Below, piece by piece: positions 156 through 53,645 of a stretch of DNA of 64,000 bases. The stretch is from contig CAZXPD010000004.1 in NCBI GenBank assembly GCA_964643065.1, forward strand, positions 5,098 through 69,097, in the 5' to 3' direction. How positions within the stretch are numbered: the first letter of the stretch is position 1; each line of letters begins with the position of its first letter. The position numbers and the translations under genes are program-made. The notes under the pieces are model-generated. The model did no database searches and was not told the DNA's origin. It was given only the letters and a program-made list of their open reading frames with translations. This DNA comes from an uncultured Gammaproteobacteria bacterium (GTDB lineage Bacteria; Cyanobacteriota; Vampirovibrionia; Gastranaerophilales; CAZEDP01).

Positions 156-209
156 CCCCAATAGATAGCGTAAATAAACCCCAATAGCCGATTTAAATAA
201 CCCGCTTAC
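156..209. repeat. Shared 3' junction of toxin/immunity arrays (partner copy 10513..10566)
   Basis: Contains an exact 26-bp match, ccccaatagatagcgtaaataaaccc. Similarity continues through cccgcttac into the stop-codon region of the last immunity gene in both loci. Confidence 0.7.
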
Positions 210-511
210 TTCAAATTATACTTACTAGCCAATACATCAAGAACGCTTTTCGTTCTTTTTCTTAACTCATTTTCATCAATAAGACTTGGATGATCTCTTA
301 TTTCAGGATCAGGCTCATAATATGCAATACCCATTCTAACTTGATTCAAATACTCATATACATTGTGATTGTAACCAAAAATCTTGTCCACATAATCTTC
401 AAGATAATCCTCATAGTTGATTACAAACTCATCTATATCAATTTTATTATTCAAAAAATCATTAGCCATTTTTATCAAAAATTGAATATGGTTCATTGCT
501 TCACTTGTCAT
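206..511 (-). CDS. Small cytoplasmic immunity-type protein, copy 3 of a tandem triplet
   Basis: Track ORF 206..529 starts at GTG. I prefer ATG 511 because all four paralogs align from M-T-(S/N)-(E/D)-A and AGGA lies about 8 nt upstream. Conserved blocks are NDFL(N/G)N(K/R)IDI(D/N)EF and RK(R/E)TK(S/R)VLD(V/I)LA(N/S)KYNL(R/K). The FLxxxIxxxEF block recalls colicin-D-immunity-like proteins (from memory, not searched). Confidence 0.6.
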   Translation of the reverse strand: MTSEAMNHIQFLIKMANDFLNNKIDIDEFVINYEDYLEDYVDKIFGYNHNVYEYLNQVRMGIAYYEPDPEIRDHPSLIDENELRKRTKSVLDVLASKYNLK

Positions 512-525
512 ATTTGGTATCCTAG

Positions 526-831
526 TCACCTGAGATTATACTTATTAGCCAATACATCAAGAACCCTTTTCGTTTCCTTTCTCACTCCATCCTCATCAAG
601 CAAACATGGCAAATCTCGAGCTTCAGGAATTGATTCATAGTACTCAACACCCATATATATATGATCAAGATATTCATAAACTACCTTATTGTATTCTAAA
701 ATTTCTTTTGAGTGATTTTCAAAATAATCTTGATATTCAATATCAAATTCATTTATATCAATTCTATTATTCAAAAAATCATTAGCGATGTTTATTAAAA
801 ATTTTATATGATTCATTGCGTCACTTGTCAT
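526..831 (-). CDS. Small cytoplasmic immunity-type protein, copy 2 of a tandem triplet
   Basis: Paralog of 206..511 and 846..1151 with the same length and conserved blocks. Separated from each neighbour by 14 nt. Confidence 0.6.
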   Translation of the reverse strand: MTSDAMNHIKFLINIANDFLNNRIDINEFDIEYQDYFENHSKEILEYNKVVYEYLDHIYMGVEYYESIPEARDLPCLLDEDGVRKETKRVLDVLANKYNLR

Positions 832-845
832 ATTTGGTATCCTAG

Positions 846-1151
846 TCACCTGAGATTATATTTATTAGCCAATACATCAAGGACACTTTTAGTCCTCTTC
901 CTCACGCCGTCTTCATCAAGAAAGTACGGGCGATCCCTAGCCTCGGGAATAGATTCATAATTTGCAATTCCCATTCTTATCTGCGCAAGAAATTCATATA
1001 TTTCTTTACTATAATTGTGGATAACTTCTGTATAATCTACAAAATAATTCTCAAACTCAATACAAAATTCATCTATATCAATTTTATTACCCAGAAAATC
1101 ATTCGACATATTTATTAAATAATGTATGTGCTTTATTGCTTCATTTGTCAT
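846..1151 (-). CDS. Small cytoplasmic immunity-type protein, copy 1, directly downstream of orphan toxin module 1163..1846
   Basis: ATG 1151 lies 11 nt after the stop of 1163..1846, with GAGGA upstream. DNA 855..1151 matches 10572..10868 with 2 mismatches in 297 bp by manual alignment. Confidence 0.65.
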   Translation of the reverse strand: MTNEAIKHIHYLINMSNDFLGNKIDIDEFCIEFENYFVDYTEVIHNYSKEIYEFLAQIRMGIANYESIPEARDRPYFLDEDGVRKRTKSVLDVLANKYNLR

Positions 1152-1162
1152 ATTTATTTTCC

Positions 1163-1846
1163 TCATTTCTTCAAAATCCATTGCAATTTTATCTTTTTTG
1201 TGTTGATTGCATTAACAATCTCACCTGTATATCTATCAATAATTACAGCCACATTATCAGCATAACGGACATAATTATTTTCAATAGGATCATAATATAA
1301 ATCACCCTTTTTTAAAACTTCAAGAATTTTTTCTGTCGAACTGATTTTACCCTGATTAATACGTTGCACAATTCTTGACACTGCATGACGATTTACCAAA
1401 TAACCGTTATTTTTCAAAGTATAATATGTTCTATAAAGTTTTTCTTTGTAAAGAGACGGATTTGAAGGTTTACCTTTGTATACTTTGGGCATTTGAGCAA
1501 CTCTTTCTTCTATAAATTTTATTATTGCTTTTTCCGAGAGCCTCTCATATACGTTTCGGATTGATGGAGTTCTAGCCAAAGCCCCTTGTCCCATTTTGCC
1601 AATAACAGGTAGAGCTTTCGCAATAGCCTGTTCTTCAATACTTGGAACTCCGGCAAAACTTGCGGAATAAAGTCCGTAGTTTATTACATCGTTCACAGTT
1701 GCTTCTCGTGATTGCTGTGTTCCGGTTTTCCAATCATAAGAAAGCGGTCTAAATCCTTTTAATCCGGCATTATTTGAAGATTGAGCATTCCCGCCGCCAC
1801 CGCCATAATTATTAACGCCCTCCTCAAACTGTCCATTCTCAGCCAT
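1163..1846 (-). CDS. Orphan toxin C-terminal module (possible BECR/DUF4258-like RNase fold)
   Basis: The N-terminal MAENGQFEEGVNNYGGGGGNA matches the Gly hinge of 3382..5082. The DNA handle 1784..1849 equals 4129..4194 with 2 mismatches in 66 bp. The C-terminal pattern NRHAVSRIVQR...ILEVLKKG...VAVIIDRYTGEIVNAI resembles the HAxxRxxxR(8-12 aa)I..vL..G...vVv....g.IiT layout of DUF4258/RelE-like toxins (from memory). Confidence 0.55.
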   Translation of the reverse strand: MAENGQFEEGVNNYGGGGGNAQSSNNAGLKGFRPLSYDWKTGTQQSREATVNDVINYGLYSASFAGVPSIEEQAIAKALPVIGKMGQGALARTPSIRNVYERLSEKAIIKFIEERVAQMPKVYKGKPSNPSLYKEKLYRTYYTLKNNGYLVNRHAVSRIVQRINQGKISSTEKILEVLKKGDLYYDPIENNYVRYADNVAVIIDRYTGEIVNAINTKKIKLQWILKK

Positions 1847-1895: not shown

Positions 1896-2420
1896 TCAAA
1901 AAGCTATTTTAATCGACACAAGGAGCATAACGGTATAAAAAACAGGAATCAAAAATAATGTTATTAAGGATTTTTTGTATTGCATGACATACAATTGATA
2001 CAAGCCAACTAAAAGCATCAAACTTGTAAAATATAGAAACCAACTGAAAAAATAACTTGTAACAATCCAATCATCAGTAAACCCTCTTGCCGTGATATTT
2101 ATAACTCTTCTATATAAGAAATCAGAAAGCAATAACAAGAAAAGCACTATAGACGTTGAGATGGCAGGTATTTTCCAGCTATTAATTATTTGTCTAACTT
2201 TTTCTTTAAACTTTATATTTCCAGTGTATTTATACATTACAAAAATTAAAATATAAAAAAGACCAACTTCAGTAAACACATTATTGAAAAACTTGCTTAA
2301 AATGGTGTTGTTTTGAGTATCGCTAAGAAGGAAGAATACAAAGAATGATAAGTTGTAAAGCAAAATAAACAATATTTGCGGAAAACACAAATTATTCAAT
2401 TTATCACTCATTTTAATCAT
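1896..2420 (-). CDS. Multi-pass membrane protein, candidate immunity partner of module 2420..2779
   Basis: 174 aa with about 5 hydrophobic segments. Its start ATG shares one base with the TAA of the upstream ORF (TAATG coupling). Confidence 0.5.
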   Translation of the reverse strand: MIKMSDKLNNLCFPQILFILLYNLSFFVFFLLSDTQNNTILSKFFNNVFTEVGLFYILIFVMYKYTGNIKFKEKVRQIINSWKIPAISTSIVLFLLLLSDFLYRRVINITARGFTDDWIVTSYFFSWFLYFTSLMLLVGLYQLYVMQYKKSLITLFLIPVFYTVMLLVSIKIAF

Positions 2421-2779
2421 TACCTGTTCTTAGTTATCTTATTCAGCTCCGATTTATCTACTTTTATATCTATAAGGATGTAATAATTCTTTATTTCTTT
2501 GAGTAACTGTAGAAAAAATGCTAAATTGTTTGTTGTTGTAAATATGGGATCAGCTTTGTATCTCTGTATTTTTTCTAATTTAAAATCATACTTGTCATAA
2601 ATAATAGCAGAAAAATTGCCATTTTTGTCAATGTGCGGATATAGAACTGTAGCATCATGAATGCTTCCAAACCAATCCCTATCTTTGTTTTTATCAAATG
2701 TAATTGAATTTCCATAATAATTGCTTAGGAAATGATGTTTTTGAAGCCATTCAGGAACATCATTAGTAAAAGTGTACAT
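2420..2779 (-). CDS. Stand-alone or truncated copy of the DxYDF C-terminal domain (orphan fragment)
   Basis: NSITFDK...GSIHDATVLYPHIDKNGNFSAIIYDKYDF...KNYYILIDI aligns with the last ~115 aa of 14138..15796, 12512..13336 and 3382..5082. It lacks the upstream (S/P)DC segment that the other three have. Confidence 0.5.
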   Translation of the reverse strand: MYTFTNDVPEWLQKHHFLSNYYGNSITFDKNKDRDWFGSIHDATVLYPHIDKNGNFSAIIYDKYDFKLEKIQRYKADPIFTTTNNLAFFLQLLKEIKNYYILIDIKVDKSELNKITKNR

Positions 2780-2788
2780 CCAAAACTC

Positions 2789-3367
2789 TTAGCCATACAA
2801 GAGATCGAGTCCCAAATACATATCAAGACAAAACAATACTAAAGTTAAAAGTAAAAGTAAAATTGCTTTGCCGAATTTTTTTTTATATAGCTGATAGAAA
2901 CTGGCAAGTAGCATCAATTCAAAAAAATAGAATGTCCAAATACCACTAATGTTTAAAAGATCACTTTGCACTAAAAATATTTCATTTGGAGATTTATTTA
3001 ACATAAAGCGGGATTTTTCGTTATATGCTAAGTAAAAACATAGAACTTCATATAACACAAGCAAGGTAGTCGGTTGCCACCAAACGTTAAAAAATCTCAT
3101 TATTATATTTTTAACGTGTTCTTTATCTGTAAATTTATAAATCAGCCAAATAAAGAGCCCCGAAAGAACCAATCCGACTCCCAATAATTCAATATCCAAA
3201 TCCATTTTATTAAATCTGTTAAACCAAAGATTATCCACTAAAAGACTGTCAACTAAAACTAAAAATTCCGATGAGACATAAGGAATAACAAAAAATATGG
3301 CAAACAACTCAAGATTTAAATATTTTTTGAAGAATTTAAACATTCTCATTTTATAGCATCTAAGCAA
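2789..3367 (-). CDS. Multi-pass membrane protein, candidate immunity partner of 3382..5082
   Basis: 192 aa with 4-5 hydrophobic segments, starting 14 nt after the toxin stop. Paralog of 10910..11488, with near-identical ends and two divergent patches. Confidence 0.55.
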   Translation of the reverse strand: MLRCYKMRMFKFFKKYLNLELFAIFFVIPYVSSEFLVLVDSLLVDNLWFNRFNKMDLDIELLGVGLVLSGLFIWLIYKFTDKEHVKNIIMRFFNVWWQPTTLLVLYEVLCFYLAYNEKSRFMLNKSPNEIFLVQSDLLNISGIWTFYFFELMLLASFYQLYKKKFGKAILLLLLTLVLFCLDMYLGLDLLYG

Positions 3368-3381
3368 TCCTTTGCCAATAT

Positions 3382-5082
3382 TTACTCTAGAATTTCTATA
3401 ATAAATATATAATTTTCTAACAAAGCAAAATTCTGAAGATAATAGGCAATATTATTAATCGCATTAGTTCTAGTTTTGTAAAAATCTTTAAATAGATACT
3501 TTGACACGTCTAATTTATGAAAATCATAAATATCAGAAATCACAACAGAATAATGACCTTTGCTATTCAATTTCACGTTATTTACTGTTACTTTACCAAG
3601 ACTCAGATGTAAATCCTGAGTTTTGTCAAATGAAATTGAATTAGGTGCCGAACCCGTTTTGAGTTTAGCAAGGAATTCCCTAAACTCGACTGACTGTTTT
3701 ACAGCTCGTGAAATTCTACTGTTTGGAGAATATTGCAAAACCTTTAATCTTTTGATATTGCCATTTTTGTCCCAAGTATCTATTGTTTGATCAAGCAATT
3801 TGCAGTCAGGAGTGCTAGACAAATCCTCAAGTTTGTTGATTGAATGTTTCATAAATTCGTATGTCAATGGTCTATAATTATTTTCTATATTGAATTTATA
3901 ATTAACTGCATTAAGCTTAGCTTTGATCTGAGCGTTGGTATTTTCTGTTATATTGGAGTTTGAATTTATCTCCTCATTGTACGGTCGCACATTTGGTTTT
4001 ATATTATCAAAATATGTCTGTTTATAAGAGGGCATACTTGCTATATTTTGATAAGGATCGGCAATATAAGGTTTTTCAGTTGCATATCCCTGTAAAGGGT
4101 TGCTATTGTTTCGACTTTCAGCCTGATTAGCATTCCCGCCGCCACCGCCATAATTATTAACACCCTCCTCAAACTGTTCATTCTCAGCCATATTCTCATA
4201 ACTGTTTATTTTGGCCATATTTTGCTGATACGATTCTTTTTTAGCCGTATATTTAGACCAAAGTTTTTTATGAACAGATTGATTATTATTTGTGGCTATT
4301 TCATTTTCAAGCTTGTCAAGATTAGTCTTTTGTTTAGACAGCGATACTTTAGCTTTATCTATTGCATTTTTCAGATTTCCTTTTGAAGCATCTAAATGAT
4401 GCGAATAGTTTGACACAGCCCCGGATGATTGAACTCCGCCCTCGTACTGTCCATTTTGTCCACCTGATTTTTGAGAAGTAAGTTTTTTAATGGAACTCAT
4501 CAGTTGCATGATTTGCTCTATCTTTTTCAAATCATTATTAACTTCCTCATCGACAGGGTCAGGCGCCGGACTGGGTTCAGGTTCTGGAGTAGGCTCGGGT
4601 TCCGGTTTAGGCTGAGGTTCTCCCTGCCCATCCGGTGGCAGCTTTCCATTATCAGGCGATTTTGGAAACTCGACTATTATCACTTTGCCCTTTAAGACTT
4701 TACCCTCAGGATTATTAGGGTCGGGATTAGGAGGGTTTTGATTTTGGTCGGAGTTAGGATCATTGTCAGGATTAGGATTTCCGTCTTCATCCGGTGACAT
4801 CCCCTGATAATCCCCATTTGATTGTCTGATTGGAGCAGACCTGTAATGTTCTCTGACATCAGTCCCGTCATCTTTTGTATAGGCGCTTACGTGAACAACT
4901 CCACAGCTTTCTTTTAAATCGCTTTCAGATGGTATTCCGATTACACCCAGTTGATAATCAATAGCTTTCTCATTAGCCGCAAATTCAGCCCTCGGCATTT
5001 TCGCGATTTCCTCTCTTGTGAATATTTTATTTGAATTATTTAATTTCGGGTTTGCATACCCCGAATAATTTCTTTTATCCAT
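3382..5082 (-). CDS. Modular polymorphic-toxin-like protein A (conserved N-domain, PE-rich linker, helical region, Gly hinge, DxYDF-family C-terminal domain)
   Basis: Start moved to ATG 5082 (the track uses TTG 5088). The N-terminal ~85 aa are about 85-90 percent identical to 14138..15796, including VHVSAYTKDDGT(D/N)VREHYRSAP. The linker is PQPKPEPEPTPEPEPSPAPDP and the hinge is NNYGGGGGN. No signal peptide was seen. Confidence 0.7.
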   Translation of the reverse strand: MDKRNYSGYANPKLNNSNKIFTREEIAKMPRAEFAANEKAIDYQLGVIGIPSESDLKESCGVVHVSAYTKDDGTDVREHYRSAPIRQSNGDYQGMSPDEDGNPNPDNDPNSDQNQNPPNPDPNNPEGKVLKGKVIIVEFPKSPDNGKLPPDGQGEPQPKPEPEPTPEPEPSPAPDPVDEEVNNDLKKIEQIMQLMSSIKKLTSQKSGGQNGQYEGGVQSSGAVSNYSHHLDASKGNLKNAIDKAKVSLSKQKTNLDKLENEIATNNNQSVHKKLWSKYTAKKESYQQNMAKINSYENMAENEQFEEGVNNYGGGGGNANQAESRNNSNPLQGYATEKPYIADPYQNIASMPSYKQTYFDNIKPNVRPYNEEINSNSNITENTNAQIKAKLNAVNYKFNIENNYRPLTYEFMKHSINKLEDLSSTPDCKLLDQTIDTWDKNGNIKRLKVLQYSPNSRISRAVKQSVEFREFLAKLKTGSAPNSISFDKTQDLHLSLGKVTVNNVKLNSKGHYSVVISDIYDFHKLDVSKYLFKDFYKTRTNAINNIAYYLQNFALLENYIFIIEILE

Positions 5083-5109
5083 GATCAACTCAATTCCTAT
5101 TATTTCTTG

Positions 5110-5829
5110 TTAAACATCCGTTCTGAAAAATTCTTCTATCATTGCTGAATTACAATCATTTCCTTTCTCAAACACAATCCTTCCTTCGGCGTCTCCGCCA
5201 TAGCCGTCCTGTCTTTGCATTTCAAGCAGATATTCAAGGAATTTTTCTCTTGTATATTTATATTTTTCGTCAGGTTTATAATTTTGCCTGTAAAGAGACG
5301 CAGTTCCCCACTCAATTACTTTTATGAACTTCTCGGGAATAAGAGGGACATCCGTTTCATCTGCGAGGTTCTCTTTTTCTTCTGTTTTATCTGCATTGAA
5401 TGCACAGTTTTGTGTCAAAAATTTTATTTGAACGGAATAAGAACTCTCCGGTGTCGGATCAAGTATTAATTTCCCGCCGAAAATCGAATATCTTAAGGGT
5501 TTACCGCTTCCTTCGGAAAGTTTATCGAGATCGCTGTGTTTTACAAAATAAAGCGGCAGAAGAGCTTCTTCAATTCTGACTCCGTCTTTCAAGATACTGC
5601 TTAATTCTACACTTTGCGAAATATCATACTCTTTTTGTTCAGCTGTTGTTTGGAAAGTATATTTTCTTTCCCTGAAAGAAAAAGGAAATCTCAAACATAC
5701 TTCGCCCAGTGTGTCTTTAATGTACTGTTTAATTTCAGGATAGGGCGAATTATCATCGGCAAAATTAACCGGCGGCTCCTCATGAACCAGCACACAAACA
5801 TTTTTCAATATATCGTAAAAATTACTCAT
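5110..5829 (-). CDS. Phage virion structural protein (possible head-tail adaptor)
   Basis: 239 aa, co-oriented and downstream of the capsid module. The assignment rests on position and size only. Confidence 0.35.
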   Translation of the reverse strand: MSNFYDILKNVCVLVHEEPPVNFADDNSPYPEIKQYIKDTLGEVCLRFPFSFRERKYTFQTTAEQKEYDISQSVELSSILKDGVRIEEALLPLYFVKHSDLDKLSEGSGKPLRYSIFGGKLILDPTPESSYSVQIKFLTQNCAFNADKTEEKENLADETDVPLIPEKFIKVIEWGTASLYRQNYKPDEKYKYTREKFLEYLLEMQRQDGYGGDAEGRIVFEKGNDCNSAMIEEFFRTDV

Positions 5830-5962: not shown

Positions 5963-6682
5963 ATGAAAAAAATATTTTTAACTTTATTTATAATTTTTAT
6001 TTACGGCAATTTTGCTTTGTCTCAAGAGCTAAATAATAGTTATTTACAAGCAGGCAATGATTTCTATAACAGCGGAAAGTACGATTCAGCCATAAAATCA
6101 TATAAAAAGGCTTTAAAAAAAGATAATAATAATTTCAAAATATTTTATGACTTAGGGTTGGCATATACTAAAAAAGGGATGATAAAACAAGCTGTTTTAA
6201 GTTACCAAAAAGCTATCGAAATGAACCCTTCTGATGATTTAACATACAATAATCTTGGTTCTTTGTATTTCAGAAAAAAGAATTTTAATAAAGCAATAGA
6301 TAGTTACAAAAAGGCTATTGAGATAAATCCTTCATTAAATATGGCGGTTGAAAATTTGGCTAATACATATTTTGAAATAAAGTCGATTGAATTAGCTTTC
6401 GATAATTTTAAAAAATTACCGGATTCTTATTCAATGGCTTCTTGGTCGCTCAATAAGCTTTCAGCTATTTACATTATCAAAGGTGATTACACATCTGCTA
6501 TCAGCATTTATAAAAAAATGATTGAACGTGAACCTAATTCCGAAATAAATTATTTCAATTTGGCTACTATTTTTGAAATAGTTGGCTTACAAGACTTAGC
6601 CGTTCAAAATTACCAAAAAGCTCTTGAAATCAATCCTCATTATATCCAGGCAAGTGAACAGCTAATAAAAATCAGAAATTGA
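5963..6682 (+). CDS. Secreted TPR-repeat protein
   Basis: N-terminal signal-like segment MKKIFLTLFIIFIYGNFALS, followed by repeated 34-aa units with A..Y.KA(L/I)(E/K).(N/D)P. Confidence 0.85.
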   Translation: MKKIFLTLFIIFIYGNFALSQELNNSYLQAGNDFYNSGKYDSAIKSYKKALKKDNNNFKIFYDLGLAYTKKGMIKQAVLSYQKAIEMNPSDDLTYNNLGSLYFRKKNFNKAIDSYKKAIEINPSLNMAVENLANTYFEIKSIELAFDNFKKLPDSYSMASWSLNKLSAIYIIKGDYTSAISIYKKMIEREPNSEINYFNLATIFEIVGLQDLAVQNYQKALEINPHYIQASEQLIKIRN

Positions 6683-7509: not shown

Positions 7510-8352
7510 CTATGATATAGTGCAAATTAATTTTGCCAGTGCATTGGGCACAACTGTTTTTGCTCCGTATACATAAAGCCCTCTTACGGCTGTGTCGAAA
7601 GAATCCTGAAGCCTGATTGATTCAACTTCAACAACCTGAGAGGCAAAGGTAACGGCATTGTTTGTTCCGGCAAGCACATAATATTTTCCTGCCGTAGCAT
7701 CGAAGTTAGTGCATACCAAAACGTCCAAACCGGCAATCTTTCCGATAGAACCTTCTCTCAAGGTATTATCGCCGGATTGAGTGGCGTGGATGAATTCCGG
7801 AGCCTGTATTAAAAGAGCTTCAATATCAGGATTAATGACAATCCAGGGTTTTTGACCTTTTGTGATAGCGTTAGCCTTTTTAAGAGCTTTTGCCATAGCT
7901 ACAAAATTCGAATAAATATTGTCTTTTGTCAGTTCAATCGGCGTTCCTTCTGAGCCTACGACATTTTCACTCGGAACATCGGCATGTTTTGCGAGTAAAA
8001 AACCGTCTTTAGCGAGGTCAATAGCAACACGGGCTCTTTCAAGATAACCGCTCATGATGTTGATATTTGACTGAGCTTTGGAAACATCGTCAACCTTGAA
8101 TGCAAAGTATTTTTTCTGGTCAATTAACAATGTTTGTAAGGGCGAAGTCAAATCATCATAAGTGATTGAACCGGCATATGTTTTAACGGTAACATTGCCG
8201 AAAGAACGGATGTATACCGTGTCGCCGGAATTTTTTATGTCCCCTTCAAAATCCCTGTTGATGCACTGCATCATAACGCCGGATTTGTCAAGAAGTGTGG
8301 TCAATTTTTTCGACCAAATTTCCGGGACAAAATTTGTTAAGTCATTAGCCAT
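7510..8352 (-). CDS. Major capsid protein (HK97 fold, P22-coat-like small type)
   Basis: 280 aa directly downstream of the scaffold-like ORF. The N-terminal FVPEIWSKK...NRDFEGDIK..GDTV pattern is typical of this capsid family (from memory). Confidence 0.7.
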   Translation of the reverse strand: MANDLTNFVPEIWSKKLTTLLDKSGVMMQCINRDFEGDIKNSGDTVYIRSFGNVTVKTYAGSITYDDLTSPLQTLLIDQKKYFAFKVDDVSKAQSNINIMSGYLERARVAIDLAKDGFLLAKHADVPSENVVGSEGTPIELTKDNIYSNFVAMAKALKKANAITKGQKPWIVINPDIEALLIQAPEFIHATQSGDNTLREGSIGKIAGLDVLVCTNFDATAGKYYVLAGTNNAVTFASQVVEVESIRLQDSFDTAVRGLYVYGAKTVVPNALAKLICTIS

Positions 8353-8497: not shown

Positions 8498-9211
8498 CTA
8501 CTTTATCAATCCTTTTGCCATTTGATCAAAAATCACTTTTTCATATTTTGAAAAAGTTTCTGTATCCATCGCAGCTATTTCTGCTCTGGTAAATGCCCTT
8601 GCGGTATTTGATGAAGGTACACCGCAGTTAACGGAAGACTGAAGTCTTGATTTTGCGTTGTTATTTTCGGCTTTCATCTTCAATGCCGCATTATATCCTG
8701 CTTTATAAATCGATGAAATATACTCAACCGCATCTTCAAAGCCCTGTTCTTTCAGACTTTCATTTTGATTCATATCCATCTGTAAATATGCTTCAATTGC
8801 CTGCTTAACTTCGGGAACAGCATATAACTCCTGATATTTTGTCTGAACGTTTCTCAGGACGGACTGGTTTTCAGTCTGAACGGCAGATAAATTTTTCAGC
8901 TTGTTATCAAGCCATTGATTAGCGTATGCTTCTCCTTTATTTTTCAACAGATAATCGAAATGAGCCTGAAGATTCTGAGGATTCAGCTCTTTTTCGCTCA
9001 TTTCAAAAATCGCATCTTCATATTTTTGCCTTAATTTTCTTTCTTCTTCAAGCTGAGATAATGAATTCTCGGTTTCTTCGGCAATTTTAGGAATTGAACT
9101 TGATTCGCCGTTATTAAAGCTGTTTTGAACTATTGGCTGCGAATCTTCATTTTCATTCTGAACCGGGTTTAGACTTAGATTTTCTGATGAGGTGAAATTT
9201 TCGTTTTCCAT
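8498..9211 (-). CDS. Scaffolding-like protein
   Basis: 237 aa, acidic and helix-prone, immediately upstream of the capsid gene. Confidence 0.5.
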   Translation of the reverse strand: MENENFTSSENLSLNPVQNENEDSQPIVQNSFNNGESSSIPKIAEETENSLSQLEEERKLRQKYEDAIFEMSEKELNPQNLQAHFDYLLKNKGEAYANQWLDNKLKNLSAVQTENQSVLRNVQTKYQELYAVPEVKQAIEAYLQMDMNQNESLKEQGFEDAVEYISSIYKAGYNAALKMKAENNNAKSRLQSSVNCGVPSSNTARAFTRAEIAAMDTETFSKYEKVIFDQMAKGLIK

Positions 9212-10562: not shown

Positions 10563-10868
10563 TTACCTCAAATTATATTTATTAGCCAATATATCAAGGA
10601 CACTTTTAGTCCTCTTCCTCACCCCGTCTTCATCAAGAAAGTACGGGCGATCCCTAGCCTCGGGAATAGATTCATAATTTGCAATTCCCATTCTTATCTG
10701 CGCAAGAAATTCATATATTTCTTTACTATAATTGTGGATAACTTCTGTATAATCTACAAAATAATTCTCAAACTCAATACAAAATTCATCTATATCAATT
10801 TTATTACCCAGAAAATCATTCGACATATTTATTAAATAATGTATGTGCTTTATTGCTTCATTTGTCAT
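10563..10868 (-). CDS. Small cytoplasmic immunity-type protein, orphan copy with no adjacent toxin
   Basis: 101 aa, differing from 846..1151 at only two nucleotide positions. Homology stops exactly at the ATG. Confidence 0.65.
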   Translation of the reverse strand: MTNEAIKHIHYLINMSNDFLGNKIDIDEFCIEFENYFVDYTEVIHNYSKEIYEFLAQIRMGIANYESIPEARDRPYFLDEDGVRKRTKSVLDILANKYNLR

Positions 10869-10909: not shown

Positions 10910-11488
10910 TTACCCATATATAAGGTCAAATCCAAAATAAATATCAAGACAAAACAATACTAAAGTTAAAAATAAAAGTAAAATTGCTTTGCCGAATTGT
11001 TTTTTATATAGCTGATAGAAACTGGCAAGTAGGACCAATCCAAAAAAATAGAATGCCCAAAAAAAACCAAAGCCTAAAAGATTTCCTTGTTCTAGAAAAG
11101 CTTCATGCGAAGGTTTGCTTAGCATAAAACGGGATTTTTCGTTATATGCTAAGCAAAAATATAGGACTTCATACGATACAAGCAAGACAATTGGTTGCCA
11201 CCAAACGTTAAAAAATCTCCTTATTATATTTTTAACGTATTCTTTATCTGTAAATTTATAAATCAGCCAAATAAATAAACCGGAAAGAACTAATCCGACT
11301 CCCAGCAATTCAATATCCAAATCCATTCTATTAAATCTGTTAAACCATAGATTATCCTCTAAAAAAATGCCAAGCAAAGCTAAACATTCCAATAAGGCGT
11401 ATGGGATAACAAAAAATAGGGCAAACAACTCAAGATTTAAATATTTTTTGAAGAATTTAAACATTCTCATTTTATAGCATCTAAGCAA
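10910..11488 (-). CDS. Multi-pass membrane protein, orphan paralog of 2789..3367
   Basis: 192 aa. The upstream intergenic cctttgccaatatt is conserved with locus A, but no toxin C-terminus precedes it. Confidence 0.55.
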   Translation of the reverse strand: MLRCYKMRMFKFFKKYLNLELFALFFVIPYALLECLALLGIFLEDNLWFNRFNRMDLDIELLGVGLVLSGLFIWLIYKFTDKEYVKNIIRRFFNVWWQPIVLLVSYEVLYFCLAYNEKSRFMLSKPSHEAFLEQGNLLGFGFFWAFYFFGLVLLASFYQLYKKQFGKAILLLFLTLVLFCLDIYFGFDLIYG

Positions 11489-11622: not shown

Positions 11623-12468
11623 ATGAATATTGGGAATTATAAAATTCAGTTGACTCGCTGGTTGATAAAACAACTCGCAAGCCCGTATTTGGCAATTTTT
11701 TTTATTATTACAATATCTGTCTTTTATCTGCAAATTAACGGTTGGGCAGTAAAAGATTATTATTTTGATCGAGAAAAGGCACAAATTGCGGTTGATAAAA
11801 GTTATGACGGGACATATAGCAATAATCTTATAAGAGAACTTGATTTGTTGACTAATAAGAAGTTCCTTCCCGTAAATCGGTCATATAATGCTTTAACGTT
11901 CTCTTTTATGTTATTATTACTGTTAATTATACTGAAAGTAAATTCTTACGAAGATTTTATAAAATTACCGGCTTTATCAAATAAAATAATTATATTTTCA
12001 TGGATTAATGTTTCTTATATCTTATTTTCTTATTTATTTATAGCTAAATTAATGAATGATATTGTTATTGAAGTTTTGCCCAGCACTGCTGACAGTTTAA
12101 GTATTCCTGAGTTATCAGCAGCCGTGTTTCTTTTTATTATAGCTATTCCCTATTATATTTTTACAAATCTATTTTTCTTTATTACATATAGAAAAACATA
12201 TAATATGAAAGTTGCTTTGAATAAATCTCTTCTTTTTTATAAACCGTTATTATCTTGGAAATATGGTTTTATAACTTTATTTCATATTTTTTCTATAATC
12301 TTATGTTTATTTTTGCTGATTGATTGGTTGCAGGGAAAATTTTATCTCTCTTTTTCCATCCAAATTATCCTGTCATTTATATGGATTTACCTTAATATAT
12401 CAGCTCTATCTGTACTTGCGAATAAATTTATTTCAAGTACAGAAAAACAAAACAACACCGTAATTTAA
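11623..12468 (+). CDS. Multi-pass membrane protein of unknown function
   Basis: 281 aa with about 7 hydrophobic segments. It is the only plus-strand gene inside locus B, convergent with 12512..13336. Confidence 0.5.
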   Translation: MNIGNYKIQLTRWLIKQLASPYLAIFFIITISVFYLQINGWAVKDYYFDREKAQIAVDKSYDGTYSNNLIRELDLLTNKKFLPVNRSYNALTFSFMLLLLLIILKVNSYEDFIKLPALSNKIIIFSWINVSYILFSYLFIAKLMNDIVIEVLPSTADSLSIPELSAAVFLFIIAIPYYIFTNLFFFITYRKTYNMKVALNKSLLFYKPLLSWKYGFITLFHIFSIILCLFLLIDWLQGKFYLSFSIQIILSFIWIYLNISALSVLANKFISSTEKQNNTVI

Positions 12469-12511: not shown

Positions 12512-13336
12512 TTACTTGTTATTCAATATTCTTGCTACTTGATACTTATCCAATTTGATATAAATAACTATAAAATAATTTTTTAGCAGACCTTTTTCTT
12601 GCAGATTGTACGCAGTTTTAACTAAAATGTTTCCTTCATTTGCAAAATTATAAACATCAATAACAATGGCATTAAAATTTCCGGCTTTGTCCAAGTGAGC
12701 ATTTATAATATCGGCAGAATTAATACTGTTACGTAGATCTTGCTTGGATTTAAATGTTTTTGAGCCATTTATGAACTGTCCATTTATCAATTTGGTTTTA
12801 TTAGTTAGTATAAACTCTTTGATATCTTGAGAATGAGCTATCTTATCAGCAAGAGGGTGTTTTGAAAATAAAATAACACCGGGACAATCAGAATTACCAA
12901 GTTGTGCTTTTATCTTGGACTCCACCCAAGCACGTATTGAGGGATCGTGTATATTATTTATACTGCCATAATAGAGACTATTTAAGGCATTTCCAATAGG
13001 ATAATTTATATGTGTTGAATGCAAAAATAATTTCGAAGATTCGGGGACATTAAAAACATTTCCGTATTTTTCGCCAACGTGAGCGCCAAAATCCATATTA
13101 TTTTTTAGCATTTGGTCGAACCAATTTGGTGAATTGTTCTTACTAGAATTTTGGCTATGGATAGTCTGACTAATAACCTTACTTGAAGATTGAGCAGGTA
13201 GACCACCACCACTTCCCTGATTTCCGTACCCATCCGCAATCCCCTGATAATCCTCATTTTGGAAGAGACTTTCAATATGATTCAGAGCTTGAGAATGTTT
13301 ATTCAGAGCTTGTTTCTTGGCATGTATTTTTTGCAT
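12512..13336 (-). CDS. Orphan C-terminal module of the DxYDF family (displaced 3' part of a 14138-type gene)
   Basis: It starts MQKIHAKKQALNKHSQALNHIESLFQNEDYQGIADGYGNQGSGG, identical to residues ~269-312 of 14138..15796. It then diverges into its own C-terminus with SDCPG ... LDKAGNFNAIVIDVYNF ... KNYFIVIYI. Confidence 0.6.
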   Translation of the reverse strand: MQKIHAKKQALNKHSQALNHIESLFQNEDYQGIADGYGNQGSGGGLPAQSSSKVISQTIHSQNSSKNNSPNWFDQMLKNNMDFGAHVGEKYGNVFNVPESSKLFLHSTHINYPIGNALNSLYYGSINNIHDPSIRAWVESKIKAQLGNSDCPGVILFSKHPLADKIAHSQDIKEFILTNKTKLINGQFINGSKTFKSKQDLRNSINSADIINAHLDKAGNFNAIVIDVYNFANEGNILVKTAYNLQEKGLLKNYFIVIYIKLDKYQVARILNNK

Positions 13337-13518
13337 CAGTTGACCGTATTTAGACTGATTTGTCGTATTTACGGCTTCATCAACAATTTTCTTCAGTTCA
13401 TTCCCTTGTTTTTGCAGAGATGATTTAGATTTGTTAATTGCTCTCTTTAAATTCGTCTTGGATAATTCAATGCTATTAGAATACCTGCTGATTGCTCCTT
13501 AATATTTTGAACTGACAG
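13205..13518. repeat. 314-bp recombination handle (partner 14861..15174)
   Basis: Manual alignment gives 6 mismatches in 314 bp, and the first ~200 bp are identical. Homology extends 182 bp upstream of the orphan ATG, where TCA (Ser214 in the full-length gene, 15155..15157) is TAA (13499..13501). Confidence 0.85.
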
Positions 13519-13558: not shown

Positions 13559-14131
13559 CTACATTTTCTTTAATAACATTAAATAGCTTTTGATTTTCCT
13601 AAAAAGAAATAAAAATATAAAAATTGCCAAATAGCTTCCTGTTAATCCTCCAAAAACTAACCTCCAAAATAGATCTGAATCTGAATAAAAGTAAGAGTGT
13701 TCTACAAAAGTTCGTGCAAAATATGAAGATATAATTGCAAAAATATCAACTATTATAGCAAACAATACTATCCTTAGTTGGAGGTTACTATTTTGAAAAA
13801 TAAGTCTAATCCATGTTATAATTTCCACGTTTTTACTCTGTCTTAGAATGATAAAGATTGTTAATGGTAGTAATAAATATTTTATAATTATTAAGAGAGG
13901 CATTAAATATACCGCCAACATCAATATAACAGAAATGCCCTCTATTTGTGCTTTATATAGCCAATCAATATATGAATACCCCATATATGCAAGATATGTT
14001 GCTATGAGTGGAAATATATTTGTTAAAATAATTAAATTTGCAAAAACAAATAAAATAGTCTCCCATTTTAATAGATTTTTAACTATAATTTGCCAGTTCA
14101 ATTTTTCTATAATTTTATCAATCATGAACAA
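13559..14131 (-). CDS. Multi-pass membrane protein, candidate immunity partner of 14138..15796
   Basis: 190 aa with about 5 hydrophobic segments, starting 6 nt after the toxin stop. Confidence 0.55.
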   Translation of the reverse strand: MFMIDKIIEKLNWQIIVKNLLKWETILFVFANLIILTNIFPLIATYLAYMGYSYIDWLYKAQIEGISVILMLAVYLMPLLIIIKYLLLPLTIFIILRQSKNVEIITWIRLIFQNSNLQLRIVLFAIIVDIFAIISSYFARTFVEHSYFYSDSDLFWRLVFGGLTGSYLAIFIFLFLFRKIKSYLMLLKKM

Positions 14132-14137
14132 TCAAGA

Positions 14138-15796
14138 TTATCTAGCTCTATTTATTTTAACAAAAACTATGACAAAATAATTTTCGATATTCTTATTTTC
14201 TTGCCAAGTTTCCATTTGGTTATTAATTTGAGCTTTAATGCTGTATTGATTTTTCATTTTACTAAAATCATATATATCAAAAATTAATGCATTTAAATTT
14301 CCGTTTTTATCAATCCATGCTTTATAAATTGTGGCATTATGCAAAGAATTTGCCAAATCTGTATCACGATAGAAGAAAACTGGTTTGAGAGTTATTGAAC
14401 CTTTTTTAAATAAATCATCTTTGTTTCTATATATTACATCTCTAAAGTCATTGGAATTTTGTATTTTTTTTGCGACATTCGATTCTGAGGTATAAATTAC
14501 TCCCTTACAATCTGATTTGTGTAATATATCACGGATTCGTTCTTGTAGATAAGTTCGTAATTGTTTGTCATTGATTTGTCGAATACTTTGAATCAACTGG
14601 GCATTTGGATTATTTAAAACTTCTCTAAGCCAAGTTAGCGAGTTATGGGCAAATTCTGTTGCAATGGGTACATAAGGTACATTTTTAAGTTTTCTAGCAA
14701 TATCAAATTTCATTCTATCCCAAAATTCTGAAGGTTCATGTAAGTCGGAACTTTTGAGAGTTTTATTTAAATCTGAATAAATATTTTGATTTCTGGCATT
14801 ATTATAATCTGATTTTTTATGAGTCTTACTGGCTGAGTTATTTTCTCCAACATTGGGTACACCACCACTTCCCTGATTTCCGTACCCATCCGCAATCCCC
14901 TGATAATCCTCATTTTGGAAGAGACTTTCAATATGATTCAGAGCTTGAGAATGTTTATTCAGAGCTTGTTTCTTGGCATGTATTTTTTGCATCAGTTGAC
15001 CGTATTTAGACTGATTTGTCGTATTTACGGCTTCATCAACAATTTTCTTCAGTTCATTTCCTTGTTTTTGCAGAGATGCTTTAGATTTGTTAATTGCTCT
15101 CTTTAAATTCGTCTTGGATAATTCAATGTTATTAGAATACCTGTTTATTGCTCCTGAATATTTTGAACTGACAGGCAATGACAGATTTTCTTTATTAGCT
15201 TTACTCGAAGCAATTTCTTTCAGACTGTTCATACTTTGTACTATTTGTTTTGCAAGGTCAGCTATTTCTTTAAGTTCGGAAATATTTTGTTCCTCATCTT
15301 CATTCGACGGTTGAGGATCAGGCTCTGGAGGTGGCTCAGGTTGCGGATCAGGTAAAGGCTCTTCCTGATCGTCCGGCGGTACAGGCAGCATTACCCCGTC
15401 GTTATTTTTATATACGTTTTTTTCAACACTTCCTTTATAAACACGCGGAATTTTTTCTTCACTGTTATTGTCCTGAGTATTATTATCATTATTTTCGTTC
15501 TCATCCCCCTCAACTCCCATCCCCCAACCATTTGACACTCTGTTGGGAGCAGAGCGGTAATGCTCTCTGACATTCGTTCCGTCATCTTTTGTATAAGCGC
15601 TTACGTGAACAACTCCACTGCTTTCCTGCAAATCGCTTTCAGAGGGTATTCCAATTACACCCAGTTGATAATCAATAGCTTTTTCATTAGCCGCAAATTC
15701 AGCCCTTGGCATTTTTGCGACTTCCTCTCTTGTGAATATTTTATTTGAATTATTCAATTTTGGATTTATAAATCCTGCAAAATTTTTTCTATCCAC
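14138..15796 (-). CDS. Modular polymorphic-toxin-like protein B (same architecture as 3382..5082)
   Basis: GTG start. The N-terminal 85 aa are shared with protein A. The linker is PDDQEEPLPDPQPEPPPEPDPQP and the hinge is DGYGNQGSGG. The C-terminus carries SDCKG ... IDKNGNLNALIFDIYDF ... ENYFVIVFV. It is the first minus-strand gene after the portal. Confidence 0.7.
   Translation of the reverse strand: MDRKNFAGFINPKLNNSNKIFTREEVAKMPRAEFAANEKAIDYQLGVIGIPSESDLQESSGVVHVSAYTKDDGTNVREHYRSAPNRVSNGWGMGVEGDENENNDNNTQDNNSEEKIPRVYKGSVEKNVYKNNDGVMLPVPPDDQEEPLPDPQPEPPPEPDPQPSNEDEEQNISELKEIADLAKQIVQSMNSLKEIASSKANKENLSLPVSSKYSGAINRYSNNIELSKTNLKRAINKSKASLQKQGNELKKIVDEAVNTTNQSKYGQLMQKIHAKKQALNKHSQALNHIESLFQNEDYQGIADGYGNQGSGGVPNVGENNSASKTHKKSDYNNARNQNIYSDLNKTLKSSDLHEPSEFWDRMKFDIARKLKNVPYVPIATEFAHNSLTWLREVLNNPNAQLIQSIRQINDKQLRTYLQERIRDILHKSDCKGVIYTSESNVAKKIQNSNDFRDVIYRNKDDLFKKGSITLKPVFFYRDTDLANSLHNATIYKAWIDKNGNLNALIFDIYDFSKMKNQYSIKAQINNQMETWQENKNIENYFVIVFVKINRAR
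14861..15174. repeat. 314-bp handle inside the full-length gene (partner 13205..13518)
   Basis: See 13205..13518. The offset between copies is 1656 bp. Confidence 0.85.
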
Positions 15797-15866: not shown

Positions 15867-16247
15867 ATGACAAACTATTTAGCGGTATTCATAGGCGGTG
15901 GGATAGGCTCTTTATTGAGATATTTAATTTCCTTGTATTTTATAAAACATATAACTAATTCGTTTCCCTATGCCACATTTACTGTAAACTTAATAGGCTG
16001 TCTTTTTATAGGCTTTATAATTTCCCTTTCAATGAACAAACCAGGCTTGTGCGGAACCAGCCTCCTTTTATTCCTTACGGTTGGAATTGCAGGAGGCTTT
16101 ACAACGTTCAGCACATTCAGCTACGAGACTTTCGCTCTTTTAAAGAACGGAGCTTTATCTGTAGCTGTTGTTTATGTTTTTCTGAGTTCATTGTTAGGCT
16201 TATTTGCGGTTTATATGGGTTCATTACTCGGGAAAGCATTCAACTGA
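15867..16247 (+). CDS. crcB: Fluoride ion channel CrcB/Fluc
   Basis: 126 aa with 4 TM segments and the motifs GGGIGSLLRY and GGFTTFSTFSYE. Confidence 0.9.
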   Translation: MTNYLAVFIGGGIGSLLRYLISLYFIKHITNSFPYATFTVNLIGCLFIGFIISLSMNKPGLCGTSLLLFLTVGIAGGFTTFSTFSYETFALLKNGALSVAVVYVFLSSLLGLFAVYMGSLLGKAFN

Positions 16248-17884
16248 CTGGGTTCTTCCTTAATAAAAATATTCGGATCAACAGAACCTAACTGTTCAAA
16301 CGCCCATTTAAGAACTTCAATCCATTTTATTCTCGGGGCAATTTCAGGACTTTGAGCGAATTTATACAATATTTCAAGACTTTCAGCCATTCTTGACTTC
16401 CTTTCGAAAATAGCCGAGCCGTCCCCGATTGTATAATCATAGTTACCCTGTCTGACTGTTTCATCAATCAGGATAAAGTCAAGTTCACCGTTTTGTTTTC
16501 TGATTTTTATTTCTTTTATGTCATAGCTGAAGTTTGCAAGTAATTCAGCAATTTTTTCTATTATGGGAACCTTAACCTTAAAGTTCAAAACATCGACTTC
16601 CTTAGAAATTCTGACATTTTGTCCGAGCATTATACCGCTAGCTTCTGTTGCAGTTCTTTGTTTCGTTCCTGCCGGATTTCCGCTCATGTATTTAGATATA
16701 CCGGTGGCGGATTCTATTTTACTTTCAAAAAACTTCAAGAAATCCCAGCCTACGAGCGCATCTTTAAATTCCAGCGCAATCGGTTCTTTTGGCATCAAGA
16801 CGGGATCATATTCAATAATAGAACCCTCTTTTATTTTAATATTACCTGTCAGAGAGCCTTTAGGAGCAAGGTAAGGCTTATTTATAATCAGCTTCAAGGC
16901 ATCCAACTGGAGATTCATTATGGAAGATGACATTTTATTCAACGGCAACGCAACTAAGAGCGGGCTAATTCCTCTTTTTGTTTCGGGGTCTTCAAGAAAT
17001 GCCGCAAATACAAACGGGTTTAAGATAAACGGATTAGGCTCAAATCTAATTATTTTTTTTCTTCCGGCAAGAGTAACCACATAATTTTTTAACAAATTGC
17101 CGTTTTCGAGCTTAATATCACCCCAATATTCGAGAATTTCTATCTGGTCTCCTTTCGTTGCTTTATTTTCTTCGGAAATCTCTTTTTTCTCTTCCGTTAA
17201 TTCCTTCAATTCCTCATAGTTTTGATAAAGCTTATTTGATTTAATCTCATCAAACGTAGAAAACGAACGATAGATTTTTGGGCAGGTCTCAAAATTCTCT
17301 TTTTTATCAGGATCAAAAACAAAAGCTTCAGGAGATACAATTGTAAGAGAAGGGCCATCGTATACAATTTCATCCTTGAGAGCAAATTCTTTTTCAGCAG
17401 CGTTATTTTCATTTTGTTTAATCCTTCTTACTTTTTTAACTTTAGTTTCCCAATTTATGAAAGCAATAAATTCCCCTTTGTTAATCCAGTTATCCAACCC
17501 TTTTTCAAGTTTTGAAATAAAATTTATTTCTCGAAATACGTCAACCAGGGCGGCTTTTTGTCTTTCAGCTCTGAAGTGGTCTTCTCTTGCTTTTCCCTGA
17601 ACATCGAACATATTGTCGAGAGAAGAATACCAGCTTTTCCACAGATGAGCTTTGTATGTTTCTTTTATTTCATAAATTTCGGGCATTTTTATATCATTCT
17701 GAATGGATGTATTTTTAGAGGGATAAATAACCTTTTCTATAGCCTGATTTGCTTCCAGATTAGGTCTTCTCAGCTCATCCCACAAGTCACGGCTTTTTGC
17801 AATTTTTTCGACTAAAGAATTTTGATTTTCTTCGGAAAGTTGTACGGTTTTATTTTCGTACTCATACTCAAATTTATAAGGCAT
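16211..17884 (-). CDS. Portal-like protein
   Basis: 557 aa counted from ATG 17884, which has AAGGAG 6 nt upstream (the track start is 17917). Same orientation as the terminase and capsid genes. The call rests on size and position. Confidence 0.55.
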   Translation of the reverse strand: MPYKFEYEYENKTVQLSEENQNSLVEKIAKSRDLWDELRRPNLEANQAIEKVIYPSKNTSIQNDIKMPEIYEIKETYKAHLWKSWYSSLDNMFDVQGKAREDHFRAERQKAALVDVFREINFISKLEKGLDNWINKGEFIAFINWETKVKKVRRIKQNENNAAEKEFALKDEIVYDGPSLTIVSPEAFVFDPDKKENFETCPKIYRSFSTFDEIKSNKLYQNYEELKELTEEKKEISEENKATKGDQIEILEYWGDIKLENGNLLKNYVVTLAGRKKIIRFEPNPFILNPFVFAAFLEDPETKRGISPLLVALPLNKMSSSIMNLQLDALKLIINKPYLAPKGSLTGNIKIKEGSIIEYDPVLMPKEPIALEFKDALVGWDFLKFFESKIESATGISKYMSGNPAGTKQRTATEASGIMLGQNVRISKEVDVLNFKVKVPIIEKIAELLANFSYDIKEIKIRKQNGELDFILIDETVRQGNYDYTIGDGSAIFERKSRMAESLEILYKFAQSPEIAPRIKWIEVLKWAFEQLGSVDPNIFIKEEPSQLNAFPSNEPI

Positions 17885-17988
17885 TACAGTCTCCTTATGT
17901 AAACTTTTTATTAACAATTGAAATAAATTAGCAATTTTATATTTTTACGGATTTTAATTATTTAGAATTAAAAATTCGAGGAAAAATT

Positions 17989-53545: not shown

Positions 53546-53645
53546 AAATGAAAATATTCAGACCATTCTTTAAGTTTATTATGATTTGTTGTAAAGTAAT
53601 AGCGGTTAGTTAGTTTAACCTGCACGATAATTGAGTTTGCAGAAT

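Follow-up and report, generated by a model that had tools for sequence, protein, structure and literature searches.

The DNA examined here, referred to as the window, is a stretch of 64,000 nucleotides (nt) of contig CAZXPD010000004.1 from an uncultured bacterium. Its first 22 kb are a prophage structural module on the minus strand, and two toxin-like loci lie within it: locus A, after the portal gene and a convergent crcB gene, and locus B, after a head-tail adaptor gene. One C-terminal domain of ~200 amino acids (aa), here named CT-X, occurs in four copies, in the full-length proteins ToxA and ToxB and in the shorter orph274 and trunc119. Judged by its sequence, the window has the architecture of a polymorphic toxin with orphan cassettes. 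The four CT-X genes are the following.

14138..15796 (-), ToxA, full-length toxin-bearing protein, 552 aa (open reading frame, ORF); CT-X tip at aa ~352-552, nt ~14141-14743
3382..5088 (-), ToxB, second full-length toxin-bearing protein, 568 aa (ORF); CT-X tip at nt ~3385-3969; family match P0006, profile positions 1-194
12512..13336 (-), orph274, displaced CT-X tip cassette of a different subtype, 274 aa; 37% identity to ToxA aa 269-550 (E=1e-40); family match P0004
2420..2779 (-), trunc119, 5'-truncated CT-X remnant, 119 aa; profile positions 83-198; family match P0010; own membrane gene retained

All the ORFs described in an earlier note on this DNA were found in place, and its proposal that four C-termini share one domain was borne out by pairwise BLASTP (E = 9e-7 to 1e-40) and by the family search reported below; the domain itself stands, at ~200 aa and not the ~230 aa that had been estimated.

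Architecture of ToxA and ToxB

ToxA consists, in order, of a conserved N-terminal module (aa 1-~90, including VHVSAYTKDDGTNVREHYRSAP), a linker rich in acidic residues and proline, a helical stretch resembling a coiled coil, and the CT-X tip. Its overall identity to ToxB is 35%; the 5' 268 nt of the two genes (~90 codons) are 87% identical, and divergence sets in thereafter. The ToxA slot follows the portal gene with crcB alone in between, and the ToxB slot comes directly after the SU10-type adaptor gene, as it likewise does in L065, an independent contig of a related phage, in which the whole order of adaptor, toxin, membrane protein, and virion protein recurs. The order of portal, crcB, toxin, and membrane protein is also found in the related locus L003. 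No hydrophobic segment or signal peptide was detected in the toxins (maximum 19-residue hydropathy <=1.0; 0.41 in the ToxA tip), which argues against both pore formation and Sec export.

The N-termini of CT-X proteins are diverse. Of 151 family representatives, 61 have the motif [IV]HVxxYxKxDGTxVxxHYR(S.P), located either at residue 4-14 or around residue 60; the latter position is that of ToxA (aa ~62-84, nt 15550-15620) and ToxB (nt 4840-4910), and no family model covers the motif. Pfam Phage_Mu_F (PF04233) was matched by 10 of 110 family members, and the MuF end-piece alone (W.SE..AC..C…PHPNCKC, Zn-ribbon-like) was seen in 22 of the 151 representatives. The short N-terminal motif of these proteins may serve as a packaging or export tag.

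The CT-X domain family

An exhaustive hidden Markov model (HMM) search of 1.84 billion representatives returned 665 CT-X cluster representatives at E<=1e-3, 306 of them at E<=1e-10; with clustering at 50% identity, the family comprises at least 665 clusters, and its hosts are uncultured bacteria of low GC content from gut, rumen, and environment. The alignment and HMM, the metagenome search, and the structure prediction that the earlier note had asked for yielded these 665 representatives and a model with a pLDDT of 93.5. Of the top 151 family matches, 148 have CT-X reaching to within a few residues of their C-terminus. Other searches returned little: a word-index search found two relatives only and, with the ToxA N-terminus as query, no match; cultured phages and plasmids, searched by tblastn with ToxA and with a typical family member, gave no match; a scan of IMG/VR gave no locus, and a scan of genome contigs one. 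In the curated libraries Pfam, NCBIfam, PHROG, and PADLOC, CT-X was without a match, in agreement with the earlier note, which had called it uncharacterised, and the toxins and membrane proteins gave only noise below threshold. Sequence searches of the PDB with the CT-X profile and with ToxA also returned nothing meaningful.

Conservation was read from 152 aligned family sequences, with residues numbered as in the ToxA tip. The signature of the family is D.YDF, in which D156 is conserved at 100%, Y158 at 95%, D159 at 84% (N in another 14%), and F160 at 97%. Further conserved positions are Q181 (99%), S88 (97%), F124 (88%), and S97 (87%), and the terminal NY-strand keeps Y189 in 83% and F in another 16%, while G148, the glycine of DKxGN, is conserved at 86%. 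Of the blocks proposed earlier, D.YDF, the NY-strand, and the glycine of DKxGN therefore hold across the family; the cysteine of 'DC' does not, being confined to relatives of the window, with D[SA][KR]G elsewhere. The histidine of SLHNAT is frequent in the family and not invariant, and the caution of the earlier note, which had claimed no catalytic triad, was well placed, since neither cysteine nor histidine is conserved family-wide. An NlpC/P60-type Cys-His peptidase, which 'SDCKG' might suggest, was rejected on the same ground.

Membrane partners of the CT-X tips

A polytopic ORF abuts all four CT-X copies in the window, and a fifth such gene stands without a toxin. Hydrophobic segments, counted by the Kyte-Doolittle method, number ~4-7 in these partners, which are candidate immunity proteins.

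13559..14131 (-), TM190, 190 aa, ~5 hydrophobic segments; starts 6 nt past the ToxA stop; candidate cognate immunity of ToxA
2789..3367 (-), TM192a, 192 aa, 4-5 hydrophobic segments; starts 14 nt past the ToxB stop; candidate cognate immunity of ToxB
1896..2420 (-), TM174, 174 aa, ~5 hydrophobic segments; start overlaps the trunc119 stop by 1 nt
11623..12468 (+), TM281, 281 aa, ~6-7 hydrophobic segments; convergent to orph274; candidate immunity for orph274
10910..11488 (-), TM192b, lone ToxB-type membrane protein, no toxin attached; 79% aa identity to TM192a; candidate orphan immunity gene

The linkage extends beyond the window. In 41 related loci with >=400 nt of sequence downstream of the tip, an ORF with >=3 hydrophobic segments was sought <=350 nt from the tip stop and was found in 38 (28 co-directional and 10 convergent), compared with a background of 19 among 157 ORFs (>=100 aa) elsewhere in the same loci. 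The claim that the domain is usually followed by a membrane protein holds, then, with the convergent arrangement included; because that arrangement occurs in 10 of the 38 loci, TM281 opposite orph274 represents a recurrent layout and not an exception. In many metagenomic loci, among them L009, L012, L015, L016, and L018, the convergent membrane genes are tandem pairs coding for ~100-125 aa proteins with four transmembrane segments (4-TM), which suggests duplicated or stacked immunity genes.

The partner families co-vary with the tip subtype. Partners of ToxA-type tips (in the window, L001, L002, L003, and L065) are homologous at 33-51% identity and have a C-terminal FGGLTGSY motif in common; to TM190 itself, the homologues in L001, L002, and L003 are 33-37% identical. 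TM192a and TM174 are weakly related (29% identity, E=2e-4), and the remaining pairs compared showed no significant similarity. Compared with the toxins, the partners diverge more rapidly: the tips of ToxA and of its L003 counterpart are 82% identical, whereas TM190 and the L003 partner (8617-9186) share 37%. The earlier note had allowed that the membrane proteins might be holin or superinfection-exclusion (Sie) proteins unrelated to the domain, and their co-variation with the tips speaks against this; its view that membrane-embedded partners would fit an envelope- or membrane-directed activity gains support.

Orphan cassettes, junction repeats, and a second tip type

Both loci carry further cassettes and lone genes, listed here.

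13204..13518 (-), junction repeat, 315 nt; 309/315 (98%) identical to ToxA 14860-15174
1163..1846 (-), orph227, orphan cassette with a different, unannotated tip, CT-Y (~190 aa), joined to a copy of the ToxB junction
206..1181 (-), three tandem paralogues, 107-111 aa, mutually 61-64% identical; candidate soluble immunity proteins for CT-Y
10563..10868 (-), imm101, lone copy of the small soluble immunity-like imm111, which follows orph227; 99% identity to imm111

The repeat at 13204-13518, which reaches from the sequence upstream of orph274 into that gene, encodes the pre-tip helical segment, and an in-frame stop lies upstream of the orph274 ATG. The orph227 gene begins with a 70-nt copy (1784-1853) that is 96% identical to the ToxB junction at 4129-4198 (…AENxQFEEGVNNYGGGGGNA…). 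The junctions in the window read …YGGGGGNA… and …YQGIADGYGNQGSGG…; CT-X and CT-Y stand on the same junction, each followed by its own candidate immunity gene or genes. For CT-Y and orph227, sequence searches of Pfam, NCBIfam, PHROG, PADLOC, and the PDB gave no family or structure match, and a PDB sequence search with imm111 returned nothing meaningful. The CT-Y-linked paralogues match PF09204 (Colicin_immun) weakly, at E=0.018, which is below the family cut-off, and the match is weak in L063 too. Both lone immunity-like copies, TM192b and imm101, are situated at locus A.

These observations go beyond the earlier note, which mentioned neither the orphan-cassette architecture, with its junction repeats, second tip type, and lone immunity genes, nor the prophage structural-module context, nor the near-invariant S88, Q181, F124, and S97, nor the identity of D.YDF with the catalytic motif of colicin M (ColM) that is described below.

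Structure model and comparison with colicin M

An AlphaFold2 model of CT-X, built from a 36-sequence alignment, reached a pLDDT of 93.5 and a pTM of 0.88. It shows a helical N-terminal half and a C-terminal unit of β-hairpin, helix, and strand; the second strand of the hairpin ends with D-x-Y-D-F(-N), the only invariant block of CT-X. Foldseek comparison of CT-X with the PDB (two models) and with BFVD gave no match at E<=0.001. The best PDB match among 350,542 chains was colicin M (2xtr_A, E=0.1), with pectocin M2 also listed; the second match was the C-terminal domain of BtpeA (9jdi), an effector of type VI secretion (T6SS).

Colicin M reads …VVRSYDDKYDFNASTHR… (sequence checked against the PDB), and D156, Y158, D159, and F160 of CT-X correspond to its D226, Y228, D229, and F230. 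In ColM, residues D226, Y228, D229, H235, and R236 make up the required DXYDX5HR motif, which is somewhat degenerate, e.g., in one burkhocin (PMC5821083). Alignment by hhalign of the CT-X profile to a ColM profile of 7 sequences gave one colinear alignment of 59-61 columns, running in order through LHNATI (LGNITL in ColM), the hairpin, DxYDFN, the helix, and the ENY-strand (KEY-strand in ColM) to the C-terminus. The score rises with the depth of the CT-X alignment, from 23.2 (P=0.007) with 36 sequences to 27.1 (P=0.0015) with 152. When the columns of the ColM alignment were shuffled 200 times and compared with the 36-sequence profile, the mean score was 11.3 (sd 2.1, maximum 19.8) and none reached 23.2; the reversed ColM alignment scored 18.1 against the same profile.

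Prophage and chromosomal context

The structural genes that place the two loci are on the minus strand.

20230-21510 (-), PBSX-type large terminase
16211..17917 (-), phage portal / head-tail connector gene; phrog_332 (E=2e-29) and phrog_1216 (E=2e-18)
7510..8352 (-), major capsid protein gene; phrog_267 (E=1e-52)
5110..5829 (-), SU10-type head-tail adaptor, directly 5' of ToxB; phrog_6013, and PF24175 (SU10_adaptor) on the identical gene of L063

The prophage is SU10-like (podovirus-type). On L063, the gene that follows locus B encodes a virion structural protein (phrog_3287). The remainder of the window holds ordinary chromosomal genes, among them those for OtsA, trehalose synthase, RibBA, and a glycogen-synthase-like protein.

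Several neighbouring genes are recorded as side observations. The crcB gene (fluoride channel-like; 15867-16247, plus strand), with the portal gene on one side and ToxA on the other, lies within the prophage head module; it runs convergently to the portal gene, overlaps the 3' end of that gene by 37 nt, and is kept in L003 (6298-6678). An Rfam scan of the whole window detected neither a fluoride riboswitch nor a member of any other RNA family. On the opposite strand (5963-6682, plus strand), in the middle of the structural module, the interval that separates the adaptor gene from the capsid gene encodes a 239-aa tetratricopeptide (TPR) repeat protein with an N-terminal hydrophobic segment, the repeat units of which are visible as a 40-nt direct-repeat family. 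In L065, a contig of a related SU10-like phage, an 821-aa H+-translocating pyrophosphatase (PF03030; 3452-5917, minus strand) appears to be a moron located between the genes for capsid and adaptor. Two genes are possibly defence-related: one for an OLD-like TOPRIM-domain protein (26179-27378, minus strand), just past the prophage region, and one for an N6/N4 DNA methylase with a RAMA domain (53631-54737, plus strand), farther from the prophage.

Proposed explanation and its alternatives

We consider it likely that CT-X is a toxin tip for which polytopic membrane proteins provide immunity. In the proposed mechanism, the shared N-terminal module, linker, and helical stalk of ToxA and ToxB would target the protein to the virion or the ejection machinery, and the exchangeable, putatively toxic tip of ~200 aa forms the end of both proteins. 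A virion-associated or ejected ToxA or ToxB could then bring its tip into the envelope of a target cell, where CT-X would most likely act as an envelope-directed enzyme, a distant relative of the ColM catalytic domain. With the invariant Asp of D-x-Y-D-F(-N), CT-X is proposed to split the pyrophosphate linkage in lipid II, or in another undecaprenyl-pyrophosphate-linked precursor, so that cell-wall synthesis would stop. Every CT-X tip has a partner of its own, a fast-evolving polytopic protein of the presumed inner membrane, by which the lysogen would be protected; immunity would act in the membrane, as with 4-TM PmiA and 3-TM BmiA of ColM-type bacteriocins, and the lone membrane-protein genes may confer cross-protection. 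The displaced cassettes orph274, trunc119, and orph227 lie downstream, and because near-identical copies of the pre-tip junction are kept in such cassettes, homologous recombination could swap the tips. Taken as a whole, a polymorphic toxin/immunity system in the structural module of an SU10-like prophage, with CT-X as a ColM-related envelope-directed enzyme, is a fairly probable model. Its parts differ in strength: ColM-like chemistry is the leading, unproven mechanism of CT-X, to which we would give slightly less than even chances, and cleavage of lipid II as its substrate is likewise tentative.

A number of results weigh against the colicin M part of this model. The structural superposition is poor (TM-score 0.19, rmsd 9 Å), with only the last ~60-70 residues in correspondence, and the second Foldseek match, 9jdi, has the higher TM-score (0.31). 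The hhalign probability is just 6-17%, PF14859 matched neither the window proteins nor, at E<=10, any of 36 diverse CT-X members, and single CT-X sequences score <=8.8 bits with an HMM built locally for ColM. The essential His-Arg of DxYDx5HR (ColM His235-Arg236) is without a counterpart in all aligned CT-X members, and the near-invariant Ser88 and Gln181 are specific to CT-X, so that chemistry or substrate may differ from those of ColM. The relationship is at the detection limit, and CT-X is not filed as a member of the ColM family. Several of these results favour the view that CT-X is a toxin tip with membrane immunity but unrelated to colicin M, having a new fold and another membrane-associated target (a different lipid carrier, a membrane protein, or the integrity of the membrane), the DxYDF match being due to convergence or chance; the lack of any significant fold match and the absence of ColM equivalents for S88, Q181, F124, and S97 fit this view well. 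However, the colinear alignment with its three blocks extends to the C-terminus of both families, its score grows with depth and lies above all 200 shuffles, and ColM ranks first among all the PDB chains with a second member of its family listed too. Damage to membrane integrity through pore formation also sits badly with a toxin that has no hydrophobic helices, and a pore-forming toxin was rejected for this reason. An origin unconnected with ColM is judged rather unlikely, although it is a serious contender because the signal of homology is marginal.

The remaining alternatives concern the role of the phage. Virion association of ToxA and ToxB is presumed from gene position, no MuF domain was recognised in either protein in Pfam and PHROG scans, and the DTYDFN subfamily, known from metagenomes of human gut, rumen, and other sources, is mostly chromosomal, with no phage structural genes as neighbours; these points count against delivery by the virion. 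Because this subfamily resides mostly in non-phage loci, the tip/immunity pair is the mobile unit, and phage carriage is one of its several contexts. It could be argued instead that ToxA and ToxB are structural virion proteins (of a tail needle, a plug, or the ejection apparatus, with a coiled-coil stalk), that CT-X is a non-toxic host-range or envelope-penetrating tip resembling the variable knobs of P22-like tail needles, and that the membrane genes are of superinfection-exclusion or holin type. The location of the genes between adaptor and virion structural genes, the weak matches of homologues to coiled-coil families, and the variability of the tips agree with such a role. It does not account for the truncated and orphan tips that each retain a membrane gene, the lone membrane genes that are kept, the tip/membrane pairs in chromosomal loci, the partners that co-vary with tip subtype, or a different tip on the same junction followed by soluble colicin-immunity-like proteins; moreover, Foldseek matched no receptor-binding or needle-knob fold, nor any other known structural fold of the kind that the earlier note had named as contrary to its proposal. 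We regard a purely structural role as improbable. Even less probable, and in our opinion very unlikely, is a virion-carried cell-wall-degrading entry enzyme, comparable to the transglycosylase domain of T7 gp16, that would aid genome delivery and not serve as a weapon: a phage structural context and a probable envelope target would suit it, whereas such enzymes come without cognate, fast-diversifying membrane partners, orphan cassettes, or lone immunity genes, and no peptidoglycan-hydrolase family or fold was matched.

A toxin tip with polytopic membrane immunity thus stays the preferred reading of CT-X. The kind of system, polymorphic toxin and immunity, is a known one; what is new is an unannotated and widespread tip family, which is probably envelope-directed and possibly a remote relative of ColM. 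A large family (at least 665 clusters) without annotation would gain one, together with a mechanism hypothesis that can be tested. From its placement at two slots of a podovirus structural module, accompanied by orphan cassettes, the idea arises that envelope-active toxins might be delivered by phage particles. If the link to ColM is true, lipid II-degrading toxins would occur not only among the classical bacteriocins of Proteobacteria but also among polymorphic toxins that prophages carry in uncultured bacteria of gut, rumen, and environment. The many natural pairs of putative toxin and polytopic immunity protein could help to explain how integral-membrane immunity blocks ColM-type enzymes. 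A bolder version, which we hold to be doubtful, would make CT-X an unrecognised, widespread branch of the colicin M superfamily that keeps the Asp-x-Tyr-Asp hairpin and has a Ser/Gln helical subdomain in place of His-Arg; podovirus particles would deliver the lipid II-cleaving tip to the periplasm of non-immune neighbours, and lysogens would be shielded by their fast-evolving polytopic partners. If true, this would be the first phage-particle-delivered toxin against a cell-wall precursor.

Comparison with known systems

In contact-dependent inhibition (CDI; CdiA-CT/CdiI) and Rhs systems, displaced tip/immunity cassettes lie downstream of the main gene and retain the pre-tip stretch for recombinational switching of tips; 5'-truncated remnants occur as well, as do lone immunity genes. 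The window resembles these systems in that its downstream tip/immunity cassettes share pre-tip homology (309/315 nt in one case, 70 nt at 96% in the other). Unlike them, it uses a phage structural-module protein as the presumed delivery module, and not a type V secretion system (T5SS) or T6SS, and neither VENN nor PxxxxDPxGL marks the boundary of its tips.

The polymorphic MuF toxins that temperate phages encode (Jamet et al. 2017, PMC5576092) are similar to ToxA in their location in the head and packaging module near the portal gene, and to both ToxA and ToxB in their conserved N-terminus, variable C-terminal putative toxin, and putative immunity gene downstream. Some CT-X family members carry Phage_Mu_F or the PHPNCKC end-piece, in the proportions given above. 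ToxA and ToxB differ in having no detectable MuF domain and, in its stead, the ~90-aa module with HVxxYxKxDGTxVxxHYR; a further difference is the second copy, ToxB, which follows the adaptor gene. The terms 'colicin M', 'lipid II', 'transmembrane', and 'orphan' do not occur in the main text of that report (PMC5576092).

Immunity proteins of pore-forming colicins (3-4 TM) are, like the CT-X partners, small polytopic inner-membrane proteins, often encoded convergently to the toxin gene (partly PMC5821083). In contrast to pore-forming colicins, CT-X lacks a hydrophobic helical hairpin, which makes a pore of the colicin type unlikely.

A further comparison is with the colicin M family of lipid II-degrading bacteriocins (PF14859; immunity by Cmi, PmiA, BmiA, or PmiC). 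The differences are considerable: CT-X has a helical N-terminal portion of ~130 residues to which nothing in ColM corresponds, and the global fold match is poor, as its TM-score indicates. The carrier of CT-X is a prophage structural-module protein, whereas colicin M is a TonB-dependent bacteriocin with receptor-binding and translocation domains, and the hosts are uncultured low-GC bacteria in the one case and Enterobacteria, Pseudomonas, and Burkholderia in the other. ColM-type toxins are polymorphic; against those from Pseudomonas and Burkholderia, the neutralising proteins are 4-TM PmiA and 3-TM BmiA, which have essentially no sequence conservation, and the immunity genes are found downstream in either orientation (PMC5821083). 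Both families have the toxic or putatively toxic domain at the very C-terminal end of proteins that are modular and polymorphic. In both, D-x-Y-D-F-N stands at the end of a β-hairpin, with L-[GH]-N-x-T-[LI] as a block upstream of it, and is followed by a helix and then by a hydrophobic strand with (E/K)x-Y, which is terminal. Finally, in CT-X as in ColM-type systems, small polytopic proteins, established as immunity proteins in the latter and candidates for this role in the former, are almost unconserved and are encoded directly downstream in either orientation.

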